A stretch of 50,833 bases of DNA from Chloroflexota bacterium (GTDB lineage: Bacteria > Chloroflexota > Anaerolineae > Anaerolineales > UBA4823). Shown here one piece after another: positions 3,393 to 32,206 of the stretch. The stretch covers positions 1,498,788 through 1,549,620 of the forward strand of contig CP070785.1 in the NCBI GenBank assembly GCA_020346705.1, read 5' to 3'. How positions within the stretch are numbered: the stretch's first letter is position 1; the number at the start of each line of letters is the position of its first letter. The translations under genes were made by a program, and so were the position numbers. The notes beneath the pieces were generated by a model. The model was not told the origin of the DNA. It was given only the letters and a program-made list of their open reading frames with translations, and did not search any database.

Positions 3393-6300
3393 TTAAGATA
3401 CACCTTCATTCACTTTTTCTGCCATCAATATATCAAATAAATTCAGCAAATCTTCACGCCAATTGGTGAGTGATTTGTAAGCCATCCAGAGCGCGGTTTT
3501 CCCGATCCTCACCTGTGGTGGTAAATCAGGTGGTAAATCTGGAGGCAGCTGTTCATCGCGATACCGTAATACAATCTGATTGCTTTCAACGGTGACACTC
3601 GATATGCCTGCTATTTCGGCGAGAAGTTTTATTTTCAGTTGGAACAATAGATTTCGAACTGGTTTTGGGGGGATCCCAAATCGATCGGTGAATTCCTCGA
3701 AAATGGCGTCAATCTCGGGCAAGGATCTCAGATCAGCAATCCGGCGATAAAGGCGAATGCGCATGTTCTTATCGGGGACATATTCGGAGGGAATACCTGC
3801 ATTAATGGGCAGATCAACGCTCACCAGAGGTCTTAACAAGTCCATGCTTACCGCGGTTGGATCTGGTGGAAGACCGCGGTCTTTTCGCAAGCGGGAAACC
3901 GATTCAGCCAACAAGCGAGTGTACAGGTGGAAACCAACTGCGACGATGTGTCCATGTTGGCGCGTTCCCAGAATATCACCTGCTCCCCGAATTTCCAAGT
4001 CGCGCATGGCGATAGAAAAACCTGCCCCAAGCTGGATATTCTCGGCGATAGTCTCCAGTCGCTGGCGACCATCTCTGGTAGGCTTTTTGCGCCGGTGTTT
4101 GAAGAAATAGGCGTAAGCGCGTTGGGCACCACGGCCGACGCGGCCTCTAAGCTGGTAAAGCTGGGAGAGACCAAAAGTATCGGCGCGATCGACGATGAGG
4201 GTATTGGCATTCGGAATATCAAGCCCAGATTCGATGATCGAGGTGCTCAATAGGACATCAATTTCACCGGCAGTGAACTGTTCCATCCTTGAAGAAAGGG
4301 AATTTTCATCCATTTGACCATGGGCAATAGCAATGCGGGCTTCAGGGACGATCTTACCGAGATGGCTGCGCATAGCCGTTATAGTTTGAACCCTATTGTG
4401 AACGAAGAAGACCTGTCCCCCTCGTTCCAGCTCGCGCAGGATCGCTTGCCTGACCAATCGAGGTGAGTAAGAACCAACATGGGTTATGATCGGCAGCCTT
4501 TCTTCAGGTGGGGTATTAATGGTAGATATATCACGTACTCCGGTGAGTGCCATGTACAACGTTCTTGGAATGGGCGTAGCAGTGAGGGTGAGCACGTCCA
4601 CTTCGGTACGCATTTGTTTGAGATGTTCCTTATGGGTTACCCCAAACCGTTGTTCCTCATCGATGATCAACAGACCGAGATCGTTAAATTCGACGTCCGC
4701 TTGAAGCAGGCGATGGGTACCAATAATAATATCCAGGCTGCCAAGGGCCAAGCGAAACAGGATATCGTTCTGCTGTTGTGTGGAACGGAAGCGAGACAGC
4801 ATCTCGACTTCTACTGGAAATGCAGCCAGACGTTCCCGGAAAGTGTTGAAATGCTGTTGGGCCAACACTGTGGTTGGTACCAGCATGGCGACCTGTTTGC
4901 CATCCATGACAGCTTTGAATGCGGCCCGCAAAGCTACTTCGGTTTTTCCATAACCCACATCACCGCAGATTAGCCTGTCCATAGGCTGGTTGCGTTCCAT
5001 ATCCAGCTTTACCTCTCCAAGGACACGAATTTGATCTTCCGTCTCGATATAAGGGAAGCTGGCCTCCAACTCTTTCTGCCAGGGTCCATCTTTAGAGAAC
5101 GAATATCCACTGACGATTTGCCGCTGTGAGTACAGGCTTAGTAGATCTTTAGCCACCTCCTCCACGGCTTCTTTGACCCGTTCCTTGACATTCTTCCATT
5201 CGAGGCTGCCTAATCTGCTAGGAGAGGGCGTGCGCTTATCCGATCCGATATAACGCGTTACCCGGTCAGCCTGATGGACTGGTACATACAGTTGATCTCC
5301 TTCAGCATATTCAATGGTCAGGTAATCTCGCTCGACCCCGTCGACCGTACGGGCGACAAGACCTAAGAATCGACCAACACCATGATCGACATGGACAACC
5401 CAATCACCGATTGCTAAATCAGTATAGGCAGCTTCGGGCGCTTCAGCAGAGGCGCGATATCGTTGACGTGGTTCGGGACGCCGCCAACCGAATATCTCCC
5501 CATCAGTAAGTAACTGGAGGGGTGGACAGGAAGGCTGGGTTAATATCCATCCTTCTGCAAGACTCCCTTCGACAAATACAGGCGGGATAGAGTTATTCTC
5601 GCCCTCGATAGAGATTTCGGACCACAATTCATGCAGCCGTCCTGCCTGGCGAGAAACTACGACTATTCTGTTACCAGCTGTGAATTGTTGACCAAAATAA
5701 TCCAAGAGAGGTTTTAACTGTCCCCCGAAACGGGGACCAGAGGAAAATTGTTTGGCAAATGATGTTGTCTCCAGCATCGCCGACGGGCCAAGCTCAATCG
5801 TGGGATGAATAGATAGTGAATCATGGATTTCAGTCAAAGTCAGGTATGGGATTGGATAATCAGGGGATAGGGATTCTTCTGCAATGTAATCTGTGCGCAT
5901 TTCAACTGCCTGCTCTTCGATTTCATGGATCGTATCATTCATATCCTCATAATGATCGACAAGCACCAGTGATTTCCGGGGCATATAATCGAGGATACTG
6001 GCTGGAGAGGAATGCAGGACAGGGATATGAAATTCCGAATAGTCTCTATCTTCGGGTTGAGTGTGCTCATCTGGGAGCAGGTATTCTCTGGCGGGTGAAA
6101 CCATCAACTCAGTAACTTTATCTGTGGAGCGTTGGGTAGCAGGATCGAACAATCGCATGCTGTCAATCTCGTCGCCAAAAAAATCTAACCTGACCGGATG
6201 AGATTCAGCAGGCGGCCAAAGATCGATAATACCTCCCCGGCGAGCTAGCTGGCCTGGTGAAATCACGGTGTTGACTGATTCATACCCCCTTTTTATTAGC

Positions 6301-6884
6301 TGGCGAACTAAGTCCTCTAAGCGGATATTCTGGTTTACCTTTAGAATTCGCACGGCTTTAAGAAATTCCCTGCGAGGAATTGTCCTCGTGATTGCACCTC
6401 TTGCTGGGGTAATTATCAGCGGTGGTGGTAAGGGAGATTGGGCAGCGGGAATATGGAATGAGGCTAATTTTGTCAATACCAGGAGACGATCGCGGCGGGT
6501 TCTTTCACCCCAGGGAGAATTCTCGTAGAACAACGGACCGGGTTCTGGAAAGAAGAGACGATCAGCATCCGGTGAAAGCAATCCTAGCTCATCATATAGT
6601 GTTAATGCGCGATCGGTGCGATCAGTGAGCAGGAGGATAGGGATTTGCAGCTTCTCATAGATCCCTGCCAGAACGGGAAGTCTTGCTGAACGGCGCAAGC
6701 CAATACCTGGAAATTCTGCTGTTCCACTGACGGAGGAACTGAATTGCGAGTCCAAGCCGTGTTCAACGACTGTGCGAAGATTTTCAATCAAATCGTCTGC
6801 ACAGTCAATGATTGGATTAATCAGCACATCTTGGATTTTAGGAGCTGTCAATTTGACCTCGAGAAATGGAAGAAGGGATGGCAA
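3393..6884 (-). CDS. mfd: Transcription-repair coupling factor
   Basis: 1163 aa. It has a CarD/TRCF RNAP-interaction region ([18 protein letters not shown]), SF2 helicase Walker [12 protein letters not shown], the DEEQ box [11 protein letters not shown], and a conserved C-terminal TRCF domain. It sits directly downstream of pth, which is the classic pth-mfd arrangement. Confidence 0.95.
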
Positions 6885-6896
6885 TAACCAGCGATA

Positions 6897-7526
6897 TTAT
6901 TCATTATCTCCATCGGTTTTAGGGTTATACCGATTCATGGCTGTTTCTAAATCTTCGGTGATAAATGTAATGATGGCTTCACCAGCTCGTTCGAGAACAT
7001 GAGGAAGAAATTCGGCATCTTCACCAGAAAAGTCTTTAAGAACATAAGATGCGGCCCCTTTTGTGCCCGGCGGACGACCAACACCAAGCCTCATGCGAGG
7101 AAAATCATTTGTTCCAAGGCGTTCGATGATCGATGTGATACCTTTATGGCCACCTGATCCACCAGAAGGGCGAATCCTGATCCTGCCAAAAGGTAAATCG
7201 ACATCATCGTATACAACCATCAGGTTTTCCAGTGGGATTTTGTAGAATTTGATCAACGAGGCGACAGATTGGCCGGATAGATTCATATAAGTCTGTGGTT
7301 TAGCCAGGATGATGTTTTGGTTGTTGTGTTTCTTTTTTGTGACCAAAGCTTTTGATTCTAAACGTGAAAATGAGGTATCCAACCTTTCTGCTAATTGGTT
7401 CAGCAACATAAATCCGATATTGTGCCGGTTGGATTGGTATTGCCGGCCAGGGTTTCCAAGCCCGACTATTAAATAAACAACAGCAGTAGCAGGTGTCGAT
7501 TCCATCAAAAGTGTAGTCCAATCCAA
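6897..7526 (-). CDS. pth: Peptidyl-tRNA hydrolase
   Basis: It carries the signature VGLGNPGRQYQSNRHNIGF and is the size typical of Pth. The true start may be the internal Met at 7505 (MESTPATAVVYLIVGLGNPG). Confidence 0.9.
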   Translation of the reverse strand: MDWTTLLMESTPATAVVYLIVGLGNPGRQYQSNRHNIGFMLLNQLAERLDTSFSRLESKALVTKKKHNNQNIILAKPQTYMNLSGQSVASLIKFYKIPLENLMVVYDDVDLPFGRIRIRPSGGSGGHKGITSIIERLGTNDFPRMRLGVGRPPGTKGAASYVLKDFSGEDAEFLPHVLERAGEAIITFITEDLETAMNRYNPKTDGDNE

Positions 7527-7556: not shown

Positions 7557-8204
7557 TTATCCATCTCCACTTCTCCTTCTATTACGAACGAATTGGTATA
7601 AGCCGAAAACGACGAATAAACCAAAGGCAGCCGCAGCACCTTTACCGAGACTTAAGCCGATATCGCGAGTATCGATTCGTGCCGGATTAGGGGGAAATGG
7701 CGTGGCTGTGAAAGGTAGAGGGGTAATAGTCATTGTTGGTGAAATTGTCGGTGCAAGTGTATCTTCTGGAGCGGGAGTCGACGTTGGGTGAGGAGTGCTC
7801 GTTTCGATGATTGAGTAATTCCGAATTCTCAAGCCAGGTATGGAGCTGATATACTGTTCGTCGCTGGTTGTGAGGACCACTCTGAGCGTGTATTGTCCAT
7901 CTGTCAGGGTGTTCGTATCCCATTCCAGACTGAATTCTTGTGGGATCTCCTCATCAATCTCATGAATTAGAAACCAGGTATTGCGTGGATCCTCTGCATA
8001 AGAAAAGCTCAGTTCAAATTTAAGGGCTCCCTCCGTGTTGATCTCGCCAGTAACCAGTACTGTGCCTTGCAGTGCACCTCCCGGTTCAGGTGCTATGATG
8101 ATGATTTGAGACCTTGAATTATCGGTTATCTCTTGGGCGTCAACTTCAATCCAAGGAATCAGGCTCATGAGCAGGATCGAAACGCTGGTAATCAGTCTGA
8201 TCAT
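7557..8204 (-). CDS. Secreted/membrane-anchored hypothetical protein (signal peptide, Ig-like beta-domain, Thr/Pro linker, C-terminal TM anchor)
   Basis: It has an N-terminal signal-like segment MIRLITSVSILLMSLIPWIEVDAQ and a beta-rich middle (LEWDTNTLTDGQYTLRVVL). A TP-rich linker follows, then the C-terminal hydrophobic helix AAAAFGLFVVFGLYQF and a basic tail RNRRRS. Confidence 0.5.
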   Translation of the reverse strand: MIRLITSVSILLMSLIPWIEVDAQEITDNSRSQIIIIAPEPGGALQGTVLVTGEINTEGALKFELSFSYAEDPRNTWFLIHEIDEEIPQEFSLEWDTNTLTDGQYTLRVVLTTSDEQYISSIPGLRIRNYSIIETSTPHPTSTPAPEDTLAPTISPTMTITPLPFTATPFPPNPARIDTRDIGLSLGKGAAAAFGLFVVFGLYQFVRNRRRSGDG

Positions 8205-9266: not shown

Positions 9267-9689
9267 ATGATGGCGTATTATGTTTCCCCTTATCGAAGGT
9301 TTGTTCGTCGAGACCGCAGAGTCGATAGTTCAATCCGCAATGCAAAACCGATGGAACGGGAAAAGGTCCTGGCGGTAGATGTGAAATCTGATGACGAAGC
9401 CTACACAATATCTGCCCTAATTCCTGGAATCGAGGCGGAAGAGATCAATGTTGAAATTTTAAACAATACAGTTTCAATTCGCGGCGAATTCAGTGAAAAC
9501 GGTGAGAATGATCAAGACCACCTATTGGTGAACGAACTTCCGTTTGGGAGTTTCAGCCGGGTGCTGACCCTACCAACAAGGCTCGATCCTGCCAAAGCGG
9601 ATGCCAATTTGAAGAACGGCGTGTTCACATTACGGGTACCCAAGGCAGAGGAAGATCGACCCAAAGTAATCAAGATCAGTGCCAATTAG
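9267..9689 (+). CDS. Small heat-shock protein, Hsp20/alpha-crystallin family
   Basis: The alpha-crystallin domain reads AVDVKSDDEAYTISALIPGIEAEEINVEILNNTVSIRGE...GSFSRVLTLP...ANLKNGVFTLRVPK. Confidence 0.9.
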   Translation: MMAYYVSPYRRFVRRDRRVDSSIRNAKPMEREKVLAVDVKSDDEAYTISALIPGIEAEEINVEILNNTVSIRGEFSENGENDQDHLLVNELPFGSFSRVLTLPTRLDPAKADANLKNGVFTLRVPKAEEDRPKVIKISAN

Positions 9690-9708: not shown

Positions 9709-9744
9709 AAAAAAGGGAAGGTCTCGAAGCACCTTCCCTTTTTT
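9709..9744. terminator. Bidirectional intrinsic terminator between hsp20 and the convergent eRF1-like gene
   Basis: GGGAAGGT (9715-9722) pairs with ACCTTCCC (9731-9738) around an 8-nt loop, with an A6 run upstream and a T6 run downstream. Confidence 0.8.
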
Positions 9745-9774: not shown

Positions 9775-10881
9775 TTAATATCTAAGAAGAGCACCAACCT
9801 GATTGAAATCTTGCTCCACCTCGATATCACGTAGAACTTCTACTTCACCACCATCCCGCATGACGCGGCGGACGGCCAATTCAACTGCATCGGTGATTTC
9901 TTCAAACTCATTTTCACAGAATGGGCAGCTGGAGAGTACTTCAGTGGTTAAGTATCCACATCCCTGGCAGCGATAGCCTGGAGCACGATAGCCTTCCCGG
10001 ATGACTAAGGTTTGAATGCGACCGTCATGGACAGCATTCAAAGTGTCTTCTAGGTCAATAACTCCCGCTTGGCCTTTTGCCTCGCTGGTGACAATCATTT
10101 GAACGAGCCTGGTTTGCTTCAAGCGCTCAGCCTCATAACCCACCTGAAGGGCACGATCCATGATTTCTACGTGGCTGGCAGTCTTGCTTATGGGGAATGT
10201 GCCGACGATAAGGCTTTGCCACGCCTTTGGTAAATGGCTGCGAAAGGCATTTACGTTTTTATCGGTACCACCGATCATCACCCGACGGACGTTGTTTTCA
10301 CTAAAGAACTTGGCGGAGAAATCAGCTGCTTCCTTAATATTCCGCTCAGCGACTTCTTTTGTGTAATTTGTTTGTCCCGCTGTCCCACCGCGCCGACCAG
10401 GAGCCTGAGAGCCGCCGCCTCTTTTGGTGCGGCGGACACTCTCCCCGGATAACTCGCTCTCTTTGAGTATTTCACCAAGGTGGAAGTAAAACAGCCGGGC
10501 GCCAATCTTGTCAACCACTGCGATCCCATAACCACCATAAAAATCGAGGATGTCTGCCAGCGGTTTGACATGAGGTCTTTCGCTAATCCGTACCCGATCG
10601 CGAATCGGTACGGCGATTGAGAACACTCTGAAATAGTCCTCAGCTGCACAGGAGAATAAAACAACACCCCTTCCAGACCAATCGAATTCAAAATCAACAT
10701 ATTGGATTACATTTCCGACATCATCTTTCGATTCGACATCCTTCAACATGCTACGTAAGCGTGGTTTATAAGCATCTGCTGTGCCTTTTGATGGGTCAGT
10801 GTTTAGATATACGCTTAATACAGGATGTTCGGTCTTAAAATCCAACAATTCTTGCAAATCTTTTTGGCTAAACATCGGCAT
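9775..10881 (-). CDS. eRF1-fold release-factor homologue, Vms1/ANKZF1-like (VLRF1 / baeRF-type) with a C-terminal zinc ribbon
   Basis: 368 aa. It has the central loop RRTKRGGGSQAPGRRGGTAGQ and the C-terminal CQGCG-x10-CPFCE. Overall domain order resembles eRF1 (N, M with a Gln loop, C). It lacks the RF1/RF2 PxT/SPF motifs. Confidence 0.65.
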   Translation of the reverse strand: MPMFSQKDLQELLDFKTEHPVLSVYLNTDPSKGTADAYKPRLRSMLKDVESKDDVGNVIQYVDFEFDWSGRGVVLFSCAAEDYFRVFSIAVPIRDRVRISERPHVKPLADILDFYGGYGIAVVDKIGARLFYFHLGEILKESELSGESVRRTKRGGGSQAPGRRGGTAGQTNYTKEVAERNIKEAADFSAKFFSENNVRRVMIGGTDKNVNAFRSHLPKAWQSLIVGTFPISKTASHVEIMDRALQVGYEAERLKQTRLVQMIVTSEAKGQAGVIDLEDTLNAVHDGRIQTLVIREGYRAPGYRCQGCGYLTTEVLSSCPFCENEFEEITDAVELAVRRVMRDGGEVEVLRDIEVEQDFNQVGALLRY

Positions 10882-10972
10882 CTCCTTGAATATGTTGGCA
10901 GAAAGATACTCTTTCGGGGACGTACCTGATTAACTGGAATGCGACAAGATAGAACTCGATGAATTATTTTGG

Positions 10973-12199
10973 TTACGGGCGTTTGCCAAGGATCAAATCA
11001 ACTTCAATTTCCTGGTTGTCTCTGAGGATGGTGAAAGTGATAATATCCCCAGGACTTTTTTCTCGCATGAGATAAGAAAGCAAATCACTAAAAGTCTGCG
11101 TGGTTCGACCATCGATTGCAATAATCAGGTCTCCACCGGAAGACAAGTTAAAGAATTCGGTTGACGTAGTCCCTCCACGAATTCCTGCCCGATCGGCAGG
11201 GCTATCGGGAGTAACACTTGTGACATAAACCCCTGAGGCTTGAGGCAAGCCCAAGGCTTCCTGCTGGAGGAGACTGATATCGTTCAAACTGCTGATTCCA
11301 AGATATGGATAATCATAACTTCCTTCACTAATCAGCGATGGAACGACTCGTTTAACAATGTTGATAGCGATGGCGAATCCGATACCCGAGTTAATTGGAT
11401 CGTCTTGGGAATTGATATTGTATGTCTCAATCGCCCTATTTACGCCGATTACCTCCCCATCAAGATTGAGCAGCGGACCTCCAGAATTACCCGGATTAAT
11501 GGCTGCATCGGTTTGGATGATATCGCCTGCGGTGAAAAAACTACCACCAGGCGCTTCGTTCAAGGAAGTGAGTGTACGACCCAGGCTTGATATTATCCCG
11601 GTCGTCATAGTACCGTTGAACCTGAATGGGCTGCCGATAGCAACAACTGTTTGCCCGACTTTGATCTCGTTGGAATCTCCGAGTGGCAGAGGGTGGAGTT
11701 CTTCTGCAGGGGCATTGACTTTGACCACAGCCAAATCAGAGTCAGTGTCAGTGCCAATTACTTCACCACGAACCTTATATCCTGAAGGAAAGTCGACCTC
11801 TAAGTCTGATACCCCATCAATAACATGAAAATTAGTGATGATATGCCCCTCTTTATCAATCACAAAACCAGAGCCAAGACCGTCCCCGGTTTCGGTTAGC
11901 ACCTGAATGGCAACAACTCCGGGATTGGACCGCTCATATATATCAACTAAAATGTTGTTGTTATTAATATCATGATTTTGGACCGCTGCAGGCTCAACAA
12001 CTTGAATTGGAGTTTCCTCAATGACTGGTTCCTCAACAACCGGCGACTCAATAAGAACTGGTTCAGTCACAGAGGTCAAGGTAGGTTGGGGAGGTTCTTC
12101 CGATATTACTATTGAGGGGGAGTTTGTTATCGCCTGACAGGCGAACATAATCATAGCTGCTAAAATAAAAATCACCAATAATTTATTACGATTCTTCAT
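10973..12199 (-). CDS. htrA: HtrA/DegP-family serine protease with a C-terminal PDZ domain
   Basis: It has a signal/anchor segment and a trypsin-like catalytic triad context (TNFHVI..., DLAVVKV, GNSGGPLLN). The PDZ region reads GVYVTSVTPDSPADRAGIRGG...DLIIAIDG. Confidence 0.9.
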   Translation of the reverse strand: MKNRNKLLVIFILAAMIMFACQAITNSPSIVISEEPPQPTLTSVTEPVLIESPVVEEPVIEETPIQVVEPAAVQNHDINNNNILVDIYERSNPGVVAIQVLTETGDGLGSGFVIDKEGHIITNFHVIDGVSDLEVDFPSGYKVRGEVIGTDTDSDLAVVKVNAPAEELHPLPLGDSNEIKVGQTVVAIGSPFRFNGTMTTGIISSLGRTLTSLNEAPGGSFFTAGDIIQTDAAINPGNSGGPLLNLDGEVIGVNRAIETYNINSQDDPINSGIGFAIAINIVKRVVPSLISEGSYDYPYLGISSLNDISLLQQEALGLPQASGVYVTSVTPDSPADRAGIRGGTTSTEFFNLSSGGDLIIAIDGRTTQTFSDLLSYLMREKSPGDIITFTILRDNQEIEVDLILGKRP

Positions 12200-12265
12200 T
12201 ACCTTGGTTCCTTTCAGAAGGTGAACCCTCAGCTAATATTATTCAGAATTGTCTGAATGAAGAAA

Positions 12266-13222
12266 TTATTCCTTGAGCTTTTTTAGCTCAGAAAACAACT
12301 CCTTTTCTTTTGAGGATAATTTTCGTGGGATCTGGATGTTTGTTTTGACGTATAAATCGCCAGATTGATTTGAGTTTTTCAAATGCGGCATGCCACGACC
12401 GGACAGGCGGAATGTTTGTCCTGATTGTGTACCTGCTGGTATAGACAAAACCACAATGCCACTTAAAGTTGGTACTTTGATCTCCCCTCCTAAAACTGCT
12501 GAGTATAAGTCCACATCAACTTCTGTATGCAGATTATCTTTCTTGCGTTTAAAGAGCGGATCATCCGCCACCTGAATAACTAAGTATAAATCACTTTTTG
12601 GAGCATTTGGCGCGGTGGAAATCGCCTCTGATACACGTATTTTCGTGCCGGTTCGTGCTCCAGGAGGAATAATAACCTCTTTTTCACGATTATCGACCTT
12701 AATCCTGCGAGTCGTCCCCTGAAATGCTTCCAATAAACTGATGGTAACGTTTTGTTGAAAGGATTGCGGTCGAGCAGCTGTGCGGGTCCTTGCGCTTCCC
12801 GAACTTCTTTGAGCAGCGCCCATATTGGACATGCCACCAAAAATGCTACGGAAGAAATCTGAGAAATTCCCTAATCCCGAGTCCCCGAACAGGTCTGCAA
12901 AATCACCAACTTCCACGCGTACATTACCGCCACGCGGGTTCTGAACAAACCATTCATCCCAATTGAATCCCCCAGGAGTCCCTCCTCTTTGCTGCCAGCT
13001 GGTATAAGATTCACCCAAACGATCGTAGTGATTTCTTTTCTCAGGATCGCTCAGTACCTGGTAGGCTTCGTTGATTTCTTTGAATTTTTCTTCTGCGGAT
13101 TTGTCCCCTGTATTTCGATCCGGATGGTGTTCGAGGGCTAACTTTCGATATTTACGTTTAATCTCATCATCGGTGGCTGTTCGATCAACACCAAGAACCT
13201 TATAATAGTCTTTATACTCCAT
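12266..13222 (-). CDS. cbpA: J-domain co-chaperone, class II (CbpA/DnaJB-like, no zinc-finger domain)
   Basis: The J domain is DYYKVLGV...[14 protein letters not shown]...EAYQVLSD. A Gly-rich region and two beta-sandwich C-terminal domains follow. There are no CxxCxGxG repeats. Confidence 0.75.
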
Positions 13223-13297: not shown

Positions 13298-13327
13298 ATT
13301 GTATGCTGACCAAGGGTGTGAAGTCAA
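13298..13327 (-). promoter_or_regulatory. Sigma-70-type promoter upstream of cbpA (TTGACT-18-TACAAT on the minus strand)
   Basis: Plus-strand AGTCAA at 13322-13327 and ATTGTA at 13298-13303 are the reverse complements of TTGACT and TACAAT. This predicts a leader of about 68 nt. Confidence 0.5.
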
Positions 13328-20018: not shown

Positions 20019-20948
20019 TTAGAGATGATTTTTCTCCCTCTTTCCAGTTTCTTCACCCGGCTTGACCTTATCAAATACAGCAATCAGCTGTTGAGGTCGG
20101 ATTGCCAGAGGTTCAGTGATCCTTTTCTGCGCTAATTCCACATAGCCAGGAATATTTTCAAAACCATAGTATTTCCTACCGAGTGCCTTTGCAACTTTTA
20201 AGGTTTGACCTGAGCCAGCGAAAGGATCCAAGATTATCTCTTCAGGGTATGAATACAAAGTAATCAACCGATAGGGTATTTCTTCTGGAAAAGGGGCAGG
20301 ATGGTCAATAGTACTCGGTGGCACAGGCGCAATATGCCAGATATTATTTGCGGTTTCCATGGTGAAAAGGCTATCAACCATGTGGGTAGCCCTGGATTTT
20401 TCCTCTGGTGAACGATCCAAGTATATTTTTTGACCAGGTTTGTTGAAAACCAAAATATATTCATTCATAATATTGGGATAATAATAGCCCGGGAACGGTT
20501 TCTGAATGAAAACTCCTGCACGTTTGACGCCAGCAGTACACTTGTGCCAGATGAAATCCTGGTGAAAAAGCCAATCTCTGTGCGATAATCGGGATACGAG
20601 ATCGAAAGGTACGGGGTAATGTTTTCCATCCAGCAGAACAGTACCGATGACAACTGCACAGAAACCACCGGGTTTTGTCACCCGGTATATCTCCTGGAAA
20701 ATACCTTCCAACCAATCTAAATAATCCTGGTAGTCAGAAAAACCTTTTGAATAATTCCTGGTGCGATAGTTCTGTTCACTATTGTCAGAATGAATGTCGT
20801 AATCTATCGCATTCCAGTAAGGCGGTGAGGTAACCGTTAAAGAAACACGATCATCCTCGATCTCGGACATACTTTCACATGAATGGGGGAAAATCTGGTT
20901 GACCATAATCGTTGAAATCAATTCACTTTTGAGGATTATACAATACAA
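20019..20948 (-). CDS. Beta-class amino DNA methyltransferase (SPPY motif IV; N4-cytosine or N6-adenine)
   Basis: Motif IV TVTSPPYWNA lies near the N-terminus and motif I ILDPFAGSGQTLKVAKALGRKYYGFE near the C-terminus, which is the beta-class order. The start is uncertain: TTG 20948 or ATG 20906. Confidence 0.85.
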   Translation of the reverse strand: MYCIILKSELISTIMVNQIFPHSCESMSEIEDDRVSLTVTSPPYWNAIDYDIHSDNSEQNYRTRNYSKGFSDYQDYLDWLEGIFQEIYRVTKPGGFCAVVIGTVLLDGKHYPVPFDLVSRLSHRDWLFHQDFIWHKCTAGVKRAGVFIQKPFPGYYYPNIMNEYILVFNKPGQKIYLDRSPEEKSRATHMVDSLFTMETANNIWHIAPVPPSTIDHPAPFPEEIPYRLITLYSYPEEIILDPFAGSGQTLKVAKALGRKYYGFENIPGYVELAQKRITEPLAIRPQQLIAVFDKVKPGEETGKREKNHL

Positions 20949-30580: not shown

Positions 30581-32206
30581 ATGAATAACCAAAGCCAAAC
30601 AGAAAGCAGAGGAAATCAATATTGGCCGCTCATCACTGGTGGGCTGCTGATAATTGTTCTCTCAATGCTTATGGCCTGGATATCCAGTGGTTTTACTAGT
30701 GTACAGTATTGGGGGAATTATTTACTCATCAGCTTTGTATCTGGCGGGATGATGTATGGGGGTTGGTTGGCTATAAAAGCCGATAACTCACTAAATCCAC
30801 CTCGATGGTTAGCATGGCTGGTAATTGGGGCTGCAGTTCTACGCCTCACAGCAGGAGTGATCTGGTATACAGGATTACCGAGTTGGGGTTATGGATCCGA
30901 TGTAGAGATTGGGGGATATATCATGGCCGATGCGCATGTGAGGGATAAGGCTGCCTGGGAGTTGGCCCAATCGAATAACCAGCTAATATCAGCATTCGGT
31001 GTAAACCGGCAGGTAGATCAATATGGCGGGATGGTTTACCTAAGTGGATTAGTTTATCGATATTTGGGCGGTGAATACCATCAGCCGCTACAAATGATCG
31101 TAATCACTGCAGCTATATCTTCTATGGCAGTTCTATTTGGGTGGGCTTTCGTCAGCAGGTTATGGGGAAGCAGAGCTGCGAAAATTGCTGCCTGGATACT
31201 GGTGCTGTTCCCAGATGCGGTTATTCTGGGGAGTTCCCAGATGCGGGAAGCATTCTTGATGACGCTGATCGCATCTGCACTCTATGGATTGGTAAGGTAC
31301 GTGCAGGATAGAAGCAGGTTGGGTTTAGTATGGCTGGTTGCATCAATTCTGTTGATGCTGCCATTCTCATCGCCAATTGCGGGAGTTTTTCTACTGATGA
31401 TCATCATCCTTGCTTTATCGATGGATGGTTGGCAGCTTCTGCGTCAAACAAGATTTTGGCTCATATTAGCTGGGATCGCGCTCGTTGCTGGGATAGGTAT
31501 TTGGTTGGCGTGGGAACAAATCGCTCCAGAAGGGATCAATAATCCTGTGGCACTGGTGGTGTGGTGGTTCCAGGAGTCTGCACGCTGGCAGGCCTACTTT
31601 GTAAAACGTTCTTCTCAATTAATTCGTCGAATTATTAATACCACGCCAGATTGGGTCAATACTCCAATTTTGATCGGCTACGGTGTCCTGCAGCCATTTC
31701 TTCCAGGAGCGTTATTGGACCAAGGTTTCCCAATATGGAAGGGGATTGCAATCTGGCGATCAGTCGGCTGGACTTTGATGCTACCTTTCCTGCTGGCAGC
31801 ACCATTATTGCTTATAAGGTTACAGGAAAAGAGAAGACTCGTGACTGGATTGGCGATCGTAGTCTGGATGGGGATTTTGATCGCGGCTTTCAGAAGTGGC
31901 GGTGATCTTTGGGACAATCCCAGATACCGGGTAGTGTTTATCAGTCTCCAAGCAGGATTAGTAGCCTGGGTGTGGTATTCCCAAAGAGATAACAAAAATC
32001 CATGGCTGTGGCGAGTAATCTTAGGTCTGGCGATAATTCTGGCCTGGTTTATTCCATGGTACCTCCAACGAAACGATCTGATCATATGGCCATTCGACAA
32101 TGTATTTGAAACCCTGGGACTGGGATTGGTCAGTGTGATAATCCTATTTTTTGGCCTGTATTTGTGGGGGAGAAGGAAGAGGGGAAAACATTCTGAAAGT
32201 GAGTGA
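30581..32206 (+). CDS. Polytopic membrane protein (about 13 TM); candidate Wzy-type polymerase or GT-C-fold glycosyltransferase
   Basis: 541 aa and highly hydrophobic, with one larger extracytoplasmic loop (residues about 95-150). Its position next to wzx and GT4 fits either role. I recognised no diagnostic motif. Confidence 0.35.
   Translation: MNNQSQTESRGNQYWPLITGGLLIIVLSMLMAWISSGFTSVQYWGNYLLISFVSGGMMYGGWLAIKADNSLNPPRWLAWLVIGAAVLRLTAGVIWYTGLPSWGYGSDVEIGGYIMADAHVRDKAAWELAQSNNQLISAFGVNRQVDQYGGMVYLSGLVYRYLGGEYHQPLQMIVITAAISSMAVLFGWAFVSRLWGSRAAKIAAWILVLFPDAVILGSSQMREAFLMTLIASALYGLVRYVQDRSRLGLVWLVASILLMLPFSSPIAGVFLLMIIILALSMDGWQLLRQTRFWLILAGIALVAGIGIWLAWEQIAPEGINNPVALVVWWFQESARWQAYFVKRSSQLIRRIINTTPDWVNTPILIGYGVLQPFLPGALLDQGFPIWKGIAIWRSVGWTLMLPFLLAAPLLLIRLQEKRRLVTGLAIVVWMGILIAAFRSGGDLWDNPRYRVVFISLQAGLVAWVWYSQRDNKNPWLWRVILGLAIILAWFIPWYLQRNDLIIWPFDNVFETLGLGLVSVIILFFGLYLWGRRKRGKHSESE

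Follow-up and report, generated by a model that had tools for sequence, protein, structure and literature searches.

We analyzed a stretch of 50,833 nucleotides (nt) from a Chloroflexota bacterium (contig CP070785.1 of assembly GCA_020346705.1, positions 1,498,788 to 1,549,620), hereafter the window, in which a minus-strand gene encodes a Balon-family eRF1-like factor, a three-domain and tRNA-shaped protein of the bacterial aeRF1 clade (baeRF-1 family 10). An initial annotation, made from the sequence alone, had described this gene as a 368-codon open reading frame (ORF) at 9775-10881. The frame exists and is intact, but it is two N-terminal codons longer than the probable coding sequence (CDS), 9775-10875, which starts at ATG 10875. 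This start is indicated by the spacing of the Shine-Dalgarno motif, by the length of the homologues, which are 366 amino acids (aa) long with the N-terminus MF[ST]E, and by an exact match to the 366-aa product UCD43453.1 (labelled 'hypothetical protein') in public collections, from which the 368-aa form is absent. Residue numbering nevertheless follows the 368-aa form (start at 10881) throughout. One search returned 2119 homologues at E ≤ 1e-3 and another returned 3900 representatives of clusters at 50% identity. These numbers, together with the strong conservation of a GG pair and a Ser in a loop and of four Cys, place the feature far beyond chance. Public labels for members of the cluster read 'hypothetical protein' or 'eRF1'.

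The product matches the Pfam model baeRF_family10 (PF18854) over residues 103-247 with 119.6 bits against a gathering cut-off of 27.1 (E = 1.7e-34), with weaker matches to baeRF families 2, 12 and 3. baeRF_family10 is also the best Pfam match of all 94 members of a broad family alignment (25-55% identity to the query), from which we built a family profile. Msmeg1130 of M. smegmatis scores 124.6 bits on this model, which puts the query in one Pfam family with a protein that cryo-electron microscopy (cryo-EM) has validated as a hibernation factor, while Rv2629 of M. tuberculosis falls in baeRF_family2 and not in family 10 (both sequences were rebuilt for the Pfam scan from HMMER alignments to PDB 8V9J/8V9K). 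The name Balon, in its published use, therefore covers several baeRF families. Cryo-EM has validated Balon, Msmeg1130 and Rv2629 as hibernation factors, which occupy the A site together with EF-Tu and are inhibitors of translation (PMC10901736), and the earlier statement that no bacterial eRF1-like family has a defined activity is thus outdated. PADLOC returned no match to the query protein and hence no defence-system signature.

The AlphaFold2 model of the query comprises three domains with a mean predicted local distance difference test score (pLDDT) of 80.8. In a Foldseek search of the PDB with the whole model, the best match was Msmeg1130 Balon (query-normalized TM-score, TMq, 0.75; E = 1.3e-23), followed by Psychrobacter urativorans Balon, archaeal aRF1, Rv2629, eRF1 and Pelota/Dom34, the leading chains being 8v9l_z, 8v9j_z, 8rdw_B and 8rd8_B. 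A separate model of the middle domain gave the same order, again with Msmeg1130 first. Msmeg1130 is likewise the top PDB sequence match of the query, and the family profile ranks it (E = 1.6e-36) ahead of aRF1 4af1 (1.1e-30, full length), Rv2629 (1e-21), eRF1 (~1e-19) and P. urativorans Balon (4.1e-13). Aligned with hhalign, the orthologue alignment and Msmeg1130 share 24% identity over 327 columns at a probability of 95.7%. The eRF1 fold that had been proposed for this protein is confirmed, with all three domains, by the Foldseek matches to aRF1/eRF1 and by the full-length match of the family profile to 4af1.

The initial annotation went further and placed the protein with Vms1/ANKZF1, that is, with the VLRF1 quality-control factors that act on 50S subunits obstructed by peptidyl-tRNA, through ester hydrolysis or cleavage of the CCA end. 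Its loop element K-R-G-G-G-S-Q does fit both the GGxSQ motif assigned to aVLRF-1 and acVLRF-1 and the GxuQ motif of eukaryotic and bacteroidete VLRF-1, and acVLRF-1 occurs in Chloroflexi (PMC6514570). The acVLRF1 Pfam model is also a secondary match in 59 of the 94 family members (best E = 2.4e-15), always beside a family 10 match. The loop Gln is not stably conserved, however, and the query itself has no match to the VLRF1, bVLRF1 or acVLRF1 Pfam models even at E ≤ 10. No Vms1 chain occurs in the top 50 Foldseek matches, whether the search used the full-length model or only the middle domain, nor among the 60 of 68 PDB profile matches listed at E ≤ 10. Architecture points the same way: acVLRF-1 has lost the N domain and aVLRF-1 the Pelota C domain, and these families carry a VLRF-specific N extension (PMC6514570), whereas the query keeps both its N and C domains. 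A body of three domains that has the shape of a tRNA and binds an elongation factor through its C domain is suited to the A site of a 70S ribosome, not to an isolated 50S subunit. We therefore regard membership of the Vms1/VLRF1 group, rejected by Pfam, PDB profile search, Foldseek at both scales and architecture, as largely refuted, and a quality-control function of this kind as very improbable.

The query fits the baeRF-1 layout, with the three standard aeRF-1 domains and a zinc ribbon in the Pelota-type C domain. The N-terminal domain has a conserved strand motif, S23-x-Y25-L26, which is common to aRF1 and the Balons. NIKS does not occur in the query sequence, and in the family profile alignment the positions of both NIKS and YxCxxxF of aRF1 are unconserved, so that the protein cannot read stop codons in the manner of aRF1. 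Conservation along the protein is highest in residues 101-147 of the middle domain. The four cysteines of the annotated ribbon (C305, C308, C319 and C322) are present, and the ribbon aligns on the Cys/His-containing insert in the C domain of aRF1. Other baeRF-1 families have a two-strand insert at this site (PMC6514570). A true aRF1 orthologue, serving as an alternative stop-codon-reading class-1 release factor beside RF1/RF2, would agree with the JGI label 'peptide chain release factor subunit 1 (eRF1)' on cluster members, with the full-length profile match to 4af1 and with a weak match of the query to TIGR03676 (aRF1_eRF1). That match reaches only 42.7 bits against a cut-off of 234.7, however, the decoding motifs are unconserved and GGQ is replaced, and baeRF-1 proteins have never displaced RF1/RF2 (PMC6514570). 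The probability that we attach to such a role is next to negligible.

The middle domain carries a Gly/Arg-rich loop with a pLDDT below 50 for residues 152-167 in the AlphaFold2 models, of which residues 150-170 read RRTKRGGGSQAPGRRGGTAGQ. It holds two elements, the first of which has its GGGSQ codons exactly where they had been annotated. In the family profile alignment, the consensus k-r-h-k-q-G-G-w-s-q-a-r-l-q-R-h falls on aRF1 G-K-Q-R-K-G-G-Q-S-A-Q-R-F-A-R-L, with the family GG on the aRF1 GG and the family Gln two residues past the canonical GGQ position; position 157 is usually Trp across the 94 representatives. There is no contiguous GGQ tripeptide in the query, which has GG-x-S-Q and a later GG-T-A-G-Q instead. 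The second stretch, already remarked upon as unusual, belongs to a clade-specific insertion (G162-R-R-G-G-T-A-G-Q170) that gives the loop two R-G-G elements: P161-A168 is inserted in only ~13 of the 94 representatives, and the loop of the Anaerolineae clade is longer by ~8 residues. No obvious trace of a loop duplication was seen by eye in the DNA sequence. The loop of Msmeg1130 reads FGQAPQERAGQ in the PDB alignments, in which this protein has no ribbon cysteines and keeps a Gln, within GQAP, at the position equivalent to Q159. One alignment places the R-A-G-Q of Msmeg1130 at the aRF1 GGQ position.

The GGQ of eRF1 sits just before the N-terminus of a helix. In the middle-domain model a long helix begins at about A168, with the second GG just before its N-terminus, and on this model the second element is a possible positional counterpart of the eRF1 GGQ. 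By alignment, the first element (T/H-K-x-G-G-x-S-Q) is a possible counterpart of the family-wide and aRF1 motif. As a disordered, Gly/Arg-rich segment, the loop also resembles what a plug that binds ribosomal RNA might look like.

The four Cys do not vary among 37 homologues at 61-90% identity, and the loop hardly does. An Anaerolinea thermophila assembly carries a copy that is 61% identical. When one genome per species was scanned, a relative turned up in 287 genomes; the best 80, all metagenome-assembled genomes of Anaerolineae/Chloroflexota, gave a set of 81 orthologues. One of the two scan patterns was the loop itself, which biases this set towards loop-bearing members. G155, G156, S158 and the four Cys are present in all 81, Q159 in 65 (80%, an upper estimate because the loop served as a search pattern) and Q170 in 59. 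Across the 94 family representatives, the four Cys are found in 91, G155 in 72 and G156 in 82, while Q159 is found in 36 (38%), the position otherwise holding Ala (21), Glu (13) or Ser (8). A neighbour-joining tree of the orthologues requires at least 7 independent changes of state at Q159 and at least 13 changes at Q170. Neither loop Gln is present in eight orthologues, which are full-length at 365-368 aa, retain the GG, the Ser, the RRGG and every Cys, and match the consensus about as well as the remaining ones do (0.726 vs 0.739). Of the residues that the initial annotation expected orthologues to share, the cysteines are thus fully conserved and the Gln only in part. With GG fixed and Gln expendable, the conserved function of the clade does not need the glutamine, although loss of Gln alone does not exclude a GG-dependent activity. 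At the locus of one of these Gln-less orthologues (P0058; locus L005, contig_50975), asparaginase and mfd are each broken into two gene calls (1000-2065 and 10985-13101), which suggests frameshift errors in the assembly; the baeRF gene is intact there, and a GGASAA-type loop is also carried by other genomes.

The gene is preceded on the same strand by genes for an HtrA-type protease and a CbpA-type J-protein and faces a convergent hsp20 (Table 1). The J-protein, in which no zinc-finger domain was detected, is probably encoded by the first gene of a dnaJ-htrA-baeRF10 transcription unit. We examined 72 orthologous loci with enough upstream sequence (71 for hsp20). The gene follows a J-protein-HtrA pair in 31, a J-protein gene directly in 20, HtrA only in 4 and neither in 17, which amounts to a same-strand upstream J-protein gene at 51/72 loci and an upstream HtrA gene at 35/72. 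A convergent hsp20 lies within 5 kb downstream at 34/71. Typical neighbours of Balon genes are stress-response genes including Hsp20, DnaK, DnaJ and RaiA (PMC10901736), and the Hsp20 and DnaJ-type neighbours of the query match those reported. The hairpin between the convergent baeRF10 and hsp20 genes is a probable shared bidirectional intrinsic terminator, as read from its stem and T-runs. It was not listed by a consensus terminator scan of the region, where the counts of promoter and terminator consensus matches were not above shuffled expectation. No Rfam families or tRNAs were found in the window.

Several other features of this neighbourhood were recorded. The hydrophobic N-terminal segment of the HtrA-type protease, which ends in ...MFAC, suggests an exported or lipidated protein, and it drew weak PADLOC matches (RT-Protease_XI and others) that seem to reflect a general resemblance among trypsin folds. 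A peptidyl-tRNA hydrolase gene, pth (6897-7526, minus), lies 2.2 kb from the gene and is followed by mfd (TRCF; 3393-6884, minus). We rejected a functional link to Pth: Pth and Mfd are near the gene only in the closest relatives (≥67% identity) and absent from more distant loci, so that their proximity looks like synteny by descent. The same strand carries, immediately upstream of pth, a 215-aa ORF (7557-8204, minus) that has no Pfam or PADLOC match; in the closest relatives, pth has an adjacent counterpart of this ORF at 43-72% identity. At one distant family 10 locus with a GGWSQ loop (L086, a short contig), a small gene (3-326, plus) overlaps the baeRF start by 4 nt, which suggests translational coupling with a partner gene.

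Table 1. Features at and around the baeRF-1 family 10 gene (window coordinates).
Feature	Position	Strand	Remarks
baeRF-1 family 10 (Balon-family) CDS	9775..10875	minus	366 aa from probable true start; PF18854 119.6 bits
AAGGAG Shine-Dalgarno motif	10882..10887	minus	6 nt before ATG 10875, directly abuts ATG 10881; read from sequence
N-terminal domain, eRF1 domain-1-like (aa 1-100)	10582..10881	minus	Model, Foldseek, profile alignment
Middle domain, baeRF_family10 / eRF1_2-like RNase-H-fold (aa 101-250)	10132..10581	minus	Pfam, conservation, model
Disordered Gly/Arg-rich loop (aa 148-173)	10363..10440	minus	Aligned on aRF1/eRF1 GGQ loop
First loop element K153-R-G155-G156-G-S158-Q159; GGGSQ codons GGC GGC GGC TCT CAG	10405..10419 (GGGSQ codons)	minus	Sequence
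Second loop element R163-R-G-G-T-A-G-Q170	10372..10395	minus	Sequence
C-terminal domain, eRF1_3/Pelota-like (aa 251-368), conserved GALLRY end	9778..10131	minus	Model, alignments
Zinc ribbon CxxC-x10-CxxC (C305, C308, C319, C322), CQGCGYLTTEVLSSCPFCE	9916..9969	minus	Inserted in C domain
Probable terminator hairpin, 10 bp perfect (AAGGGAAGGT / ACCTTCCCTT), T-runs on both strands	9709..9740	both	Read by eye from sequence
Hsp20/alpha-crystallin small heat-shock protein	9267..9689	plus	Convergent with baeRF10
HtrA/DegP-type serine protease (Trypsin_2 + PDZ), N-terminal signal-like segment	10973..12199	minus	91-nt gap upstream of baeRF10
CbpA-type J-protein (J domain + DnaJ_C)	12266..13222	minus	66-nt gap to htrA; Pfam
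Sigma-70-like match TTGACT-18-TACAAT (10/12)	13298..13327	minus	Upstream of J-protein gene only; consensus match, lead only

On the strength of the family assignment, the structural ranking, the absence of decoding motifs, the expendable Gln, the gene neighbourhood and the equivalent Gln of Msmeg1130, we consider a stress-linked, Balon-type A-site factor the best reading of this gene, at somewhat better than even probability. Under proteotoxic or stationary-phase stress, the factor would be produced together with the CbpA-type J-protein and often the HtrA protease. Because it has neither NIKS nor YxCxxxF, its entry into the ribosomal A site would involve no recognition of a stop codon and would not depend on mRNA. 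EF-Tu would probably be bound to its C domain, by analogy with Balon, with the zinc ribbon taking the place of the beta-hairpin insert that Balon has there. The flexible Gly/Arg-rich loop would be placed at the peptidyl-transferase centre, where it could block the A site and arrest and protect the ribosome. The fold, the family assignment, the placement of the motifs, the pattern of conservation and the gene context are direct results of the analysis; ribosome binding, delivery by EF-Tu, induction by stress and arrest rather than release are what we infer from these comparisons.

A number of observations weigh against this reading. The characterized Balons are without the GG pair, while G155/G156 align on the GG of the aRF1 GGQ and are as strongly kept, in the 81 orthologues and family-wide, as the counts above indicate. 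In genuine release factors GGQ is universally conserved and both glycines need backbone angles that only glycine allows; any mutation of either glycine abolishes release, while the Gln side chain has a packing role. The loop is also of fixed length among the 81 orthologues, and a fixed loop length has been described as a mark of catalytically active families, with family 10 singled out as a possible hydrolase (PMC6514570). On the NCBIfam models of the Balon subfamilies the query scores 81.9 bits (MSMEG_1130_fam, cut-off 480), 51.1 bits (Rv2629_fam, cut-off 320) and 49.3 bits (AOC03_06830_fam, cut-off 330); it lies far under all three equivalog cut-offs and is therefore a relative, not an equivalog, of any characterized subfamily. 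Balon is distinguished by an HP motif at the decoding centre, a lasso loop and bL27 trap at the catalytic centre and a beta-hairpin insert that contacts EF-Tu (PMC10901736). Short of a residue-level superposition on 8RD8, none of these four features could be recognized in the query, which has the GG loop and the zinc ribbon instead. No HPF/RaiA gene was found among the window ORFs scanned or adjacent to the gene, and the window has no match, at ≤3 mismatches, to CIRCE (TTAGCACTC-N9-GAGTGCTAA) or HAIR (CTTGAGT-N7-ACTCAAG), so that it is gene order that points to stress co-regulation. Our literature search yielded no experiments on family 10 proteins that carry the GG/Gln.

The glycines are also central to a tentative alternative, to which we assign a probability well short of even. 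Here the protein would be an active, stop-codon-independent peptidyl-tRNA hydrolase, an aeRF1-type rescue or release factor on stalled or stress-arrested 70S ribosomes whose GG loop triggers hydrolysis, and the co-encoded J-protein, HtrA and Hsp20 would then handle the released chain. The GG pair, invariant in the orthologues, common in the family and aligned on that of aRF1, is the mechanistically indispensable part of GGQ, and the loop fits the GGxSQ of predicted hydrolase families, family 10 itself having been flagged as a potential hydrolase (PMC6514570). The fixed length of the loop within the clade, its conservation above the protein average (0.819 vs 0.736 in the 81 orthologues) and a neighbourhood of proteostasis genes are all consistent with such an activity. 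Against it, the Gln is not adjacent to the GG (GG-G-S-Q), and its repeated changes among the orthologues, its absence from eight intact proteins and its low frequency in the family differ from bona fide release factors, in which GGQ is universal. Msmeg1130, the nearest characterized relative, has the equivalent Gln and yet is a hibernation factor, and the Balon of P. urativorans leaves the nascent chain intact while keeping the catalytic centre inactive (PMC10901736).

In its invariant GG pair the protein retains an ancestral trait of aRF1; to judge from the alignments, this pair and the zinc ribbon are two such traits that the characterized Balons have lost. Since the query and several hundred Anaerolineae orthologues keep both, they stand at the point of transition from release factor to parking factor. 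It is conceivable, though we think it unlikely, that the Anaerolineae family 10 clade is a living aRF1-to-Balon intermediate, in which EF-Tu delivers the factor, independently of stop codons, to the A site of a stress-arrested 70S ribosome, the GG loop hydrolyses the peptidyl-tRNA and the ribosome is then parked. If so, this would be the first aeRF1-type peptide release in bacteria, and one without an obligatory glutamine. The nascent chain would be cleared first and handled by the co-encoded J-protein, HtrA and Hsp20.

Bacterial eRF1 homologues have moved from a curiosity of comparative genomics in 2019 to a proven family of hibernation factors in 2024, the characterized members of which are without the release loop. 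The family was defined computationally by Burroughs and Aravind in 2019, who noted the loop glutamine (PMC6514570), the hibernation role of Balon was shown in 2024, and one family 10 member, Msmeg1130, was characterized in that year. What is new here is that Msmeg1130 belongs to family 10, that the Gln of this family is much less conserved than its GG pair or zinc ribbon, that the Anaerolineae clade has a doubled R-G-G loop, and that a J-protein gene, in many cases along with HtrA, is linked to this gene. These findings bear on a question raised in 2019, namely whether any bacterial aeRF1 homologue is still a peptidyl-tRNA hydrolase, for which the natural Gln-less variants offer ready-made controls. 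If the protein is simply another Balon, the finding is an ordinary one that mainly corrects the labels 'hypothetical protein' and 'eRF1'.

Elsewhere in the window, a long run of same-strand ORFs (25576-50489, plus) was scanned up to 34943. This part includes sugar-nucleotide and glycosyltransferase genes (UDP-glucose dehydrogenase, epimerases/dehydratases, GDP-mannose dehydratase and a GT1 transferase) together with genes for a flippase-like Polysacc_synt protein and a MarR-type regulator, which suggests a surface-polysaccharide cluster; a 541-aa ORF within the run (30581-32206) has no Pfam match. An N6/N4 DNA methyltransferase gene (20019-20948, minus) is flanked by holB (DNA polymerase III delta') and a UvrD/PcrA helicase gene and, with no restriction enzyme evident nearby, may encode an orphan methylase.

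With the archaeal and eukaryotic Pelota/Dom34 the query shares the three-domain aeRF1 fold and the lack of a conserved catalytic Gln, and Pelota binds the A site independently of stop codons; but the matches are much weaker (E ~1e-10), and Pelota has a loop A and neither a GG loop nor such a zinc ribbon. The likeness to acVLRF-1 and Vms1-ANKZF1 consists of an aeRF1-derived middle domain and a GGxSQ/GxuQ-type loop after basic residues, whereas the query has no VLRF1-type hidden Markov model match, no Vms1 among its top 50 structural matches, and both flanking domains. To aRF1 (4AF1) and eRF1 it is linked by homology over the full length (E = 1.1e-30), the aligned GG, the Cys-containing C-domain insert at the ribbon site and, in most family members and with respect to aRF1, the spacing from GG to the following basic helix. 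It differs from them in the absence of NIKS/YxCxxxF, in a displaced and unconserved Gln (GG-x-S-Q), in the ~8-residue loop insertion of the Anaerolineae clade, and in its bacterial host, where baeRF-1 coexists with RF1/RF2 (PMC6514570).

The working definition of Balon-like proteins in the field is the absence of NIKS and GGQ, and the query is Balon-like by this definition only in the strict sense of having no GGQ tripeptide. It shares the aeRF1 fold and the lack of NIKS and of a canonical GGQ with P. urativorans Balon (8RD8/8RDV/8RDW) and M. tuberculosis Rv2629 (8V9K). These two are A-site binders, as the query would be by our reading; Rv2629 belongs to baeRF_family2, and the P. urativorans protein is a more remote match of the family profile (E = 4.1e-13). 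The closest known counterpart is Msmeg1130 (MSMEG_1130; PDB 8V9J/8V9L). At ~24% identity, and with the query at 81.9 against 480 bits on its NCBIfam model, the two are far apart in sequence, and Msmeg1130 is without the K-R-G-G element and all four ribbon cysteines, whereas the query loop has two R-G-G elements. Nonetheless, they share a Pfam family, three aeRF1-like domains without NIKS, a [GS]-Q-A-P loop and a C-terminal LR[YW]; Msmeg1130 is the best match of the query by structure and by PDB sequence, and the stress-gene neighbourhood of the query is similar to that reported for Balon genes (PMC10901736).

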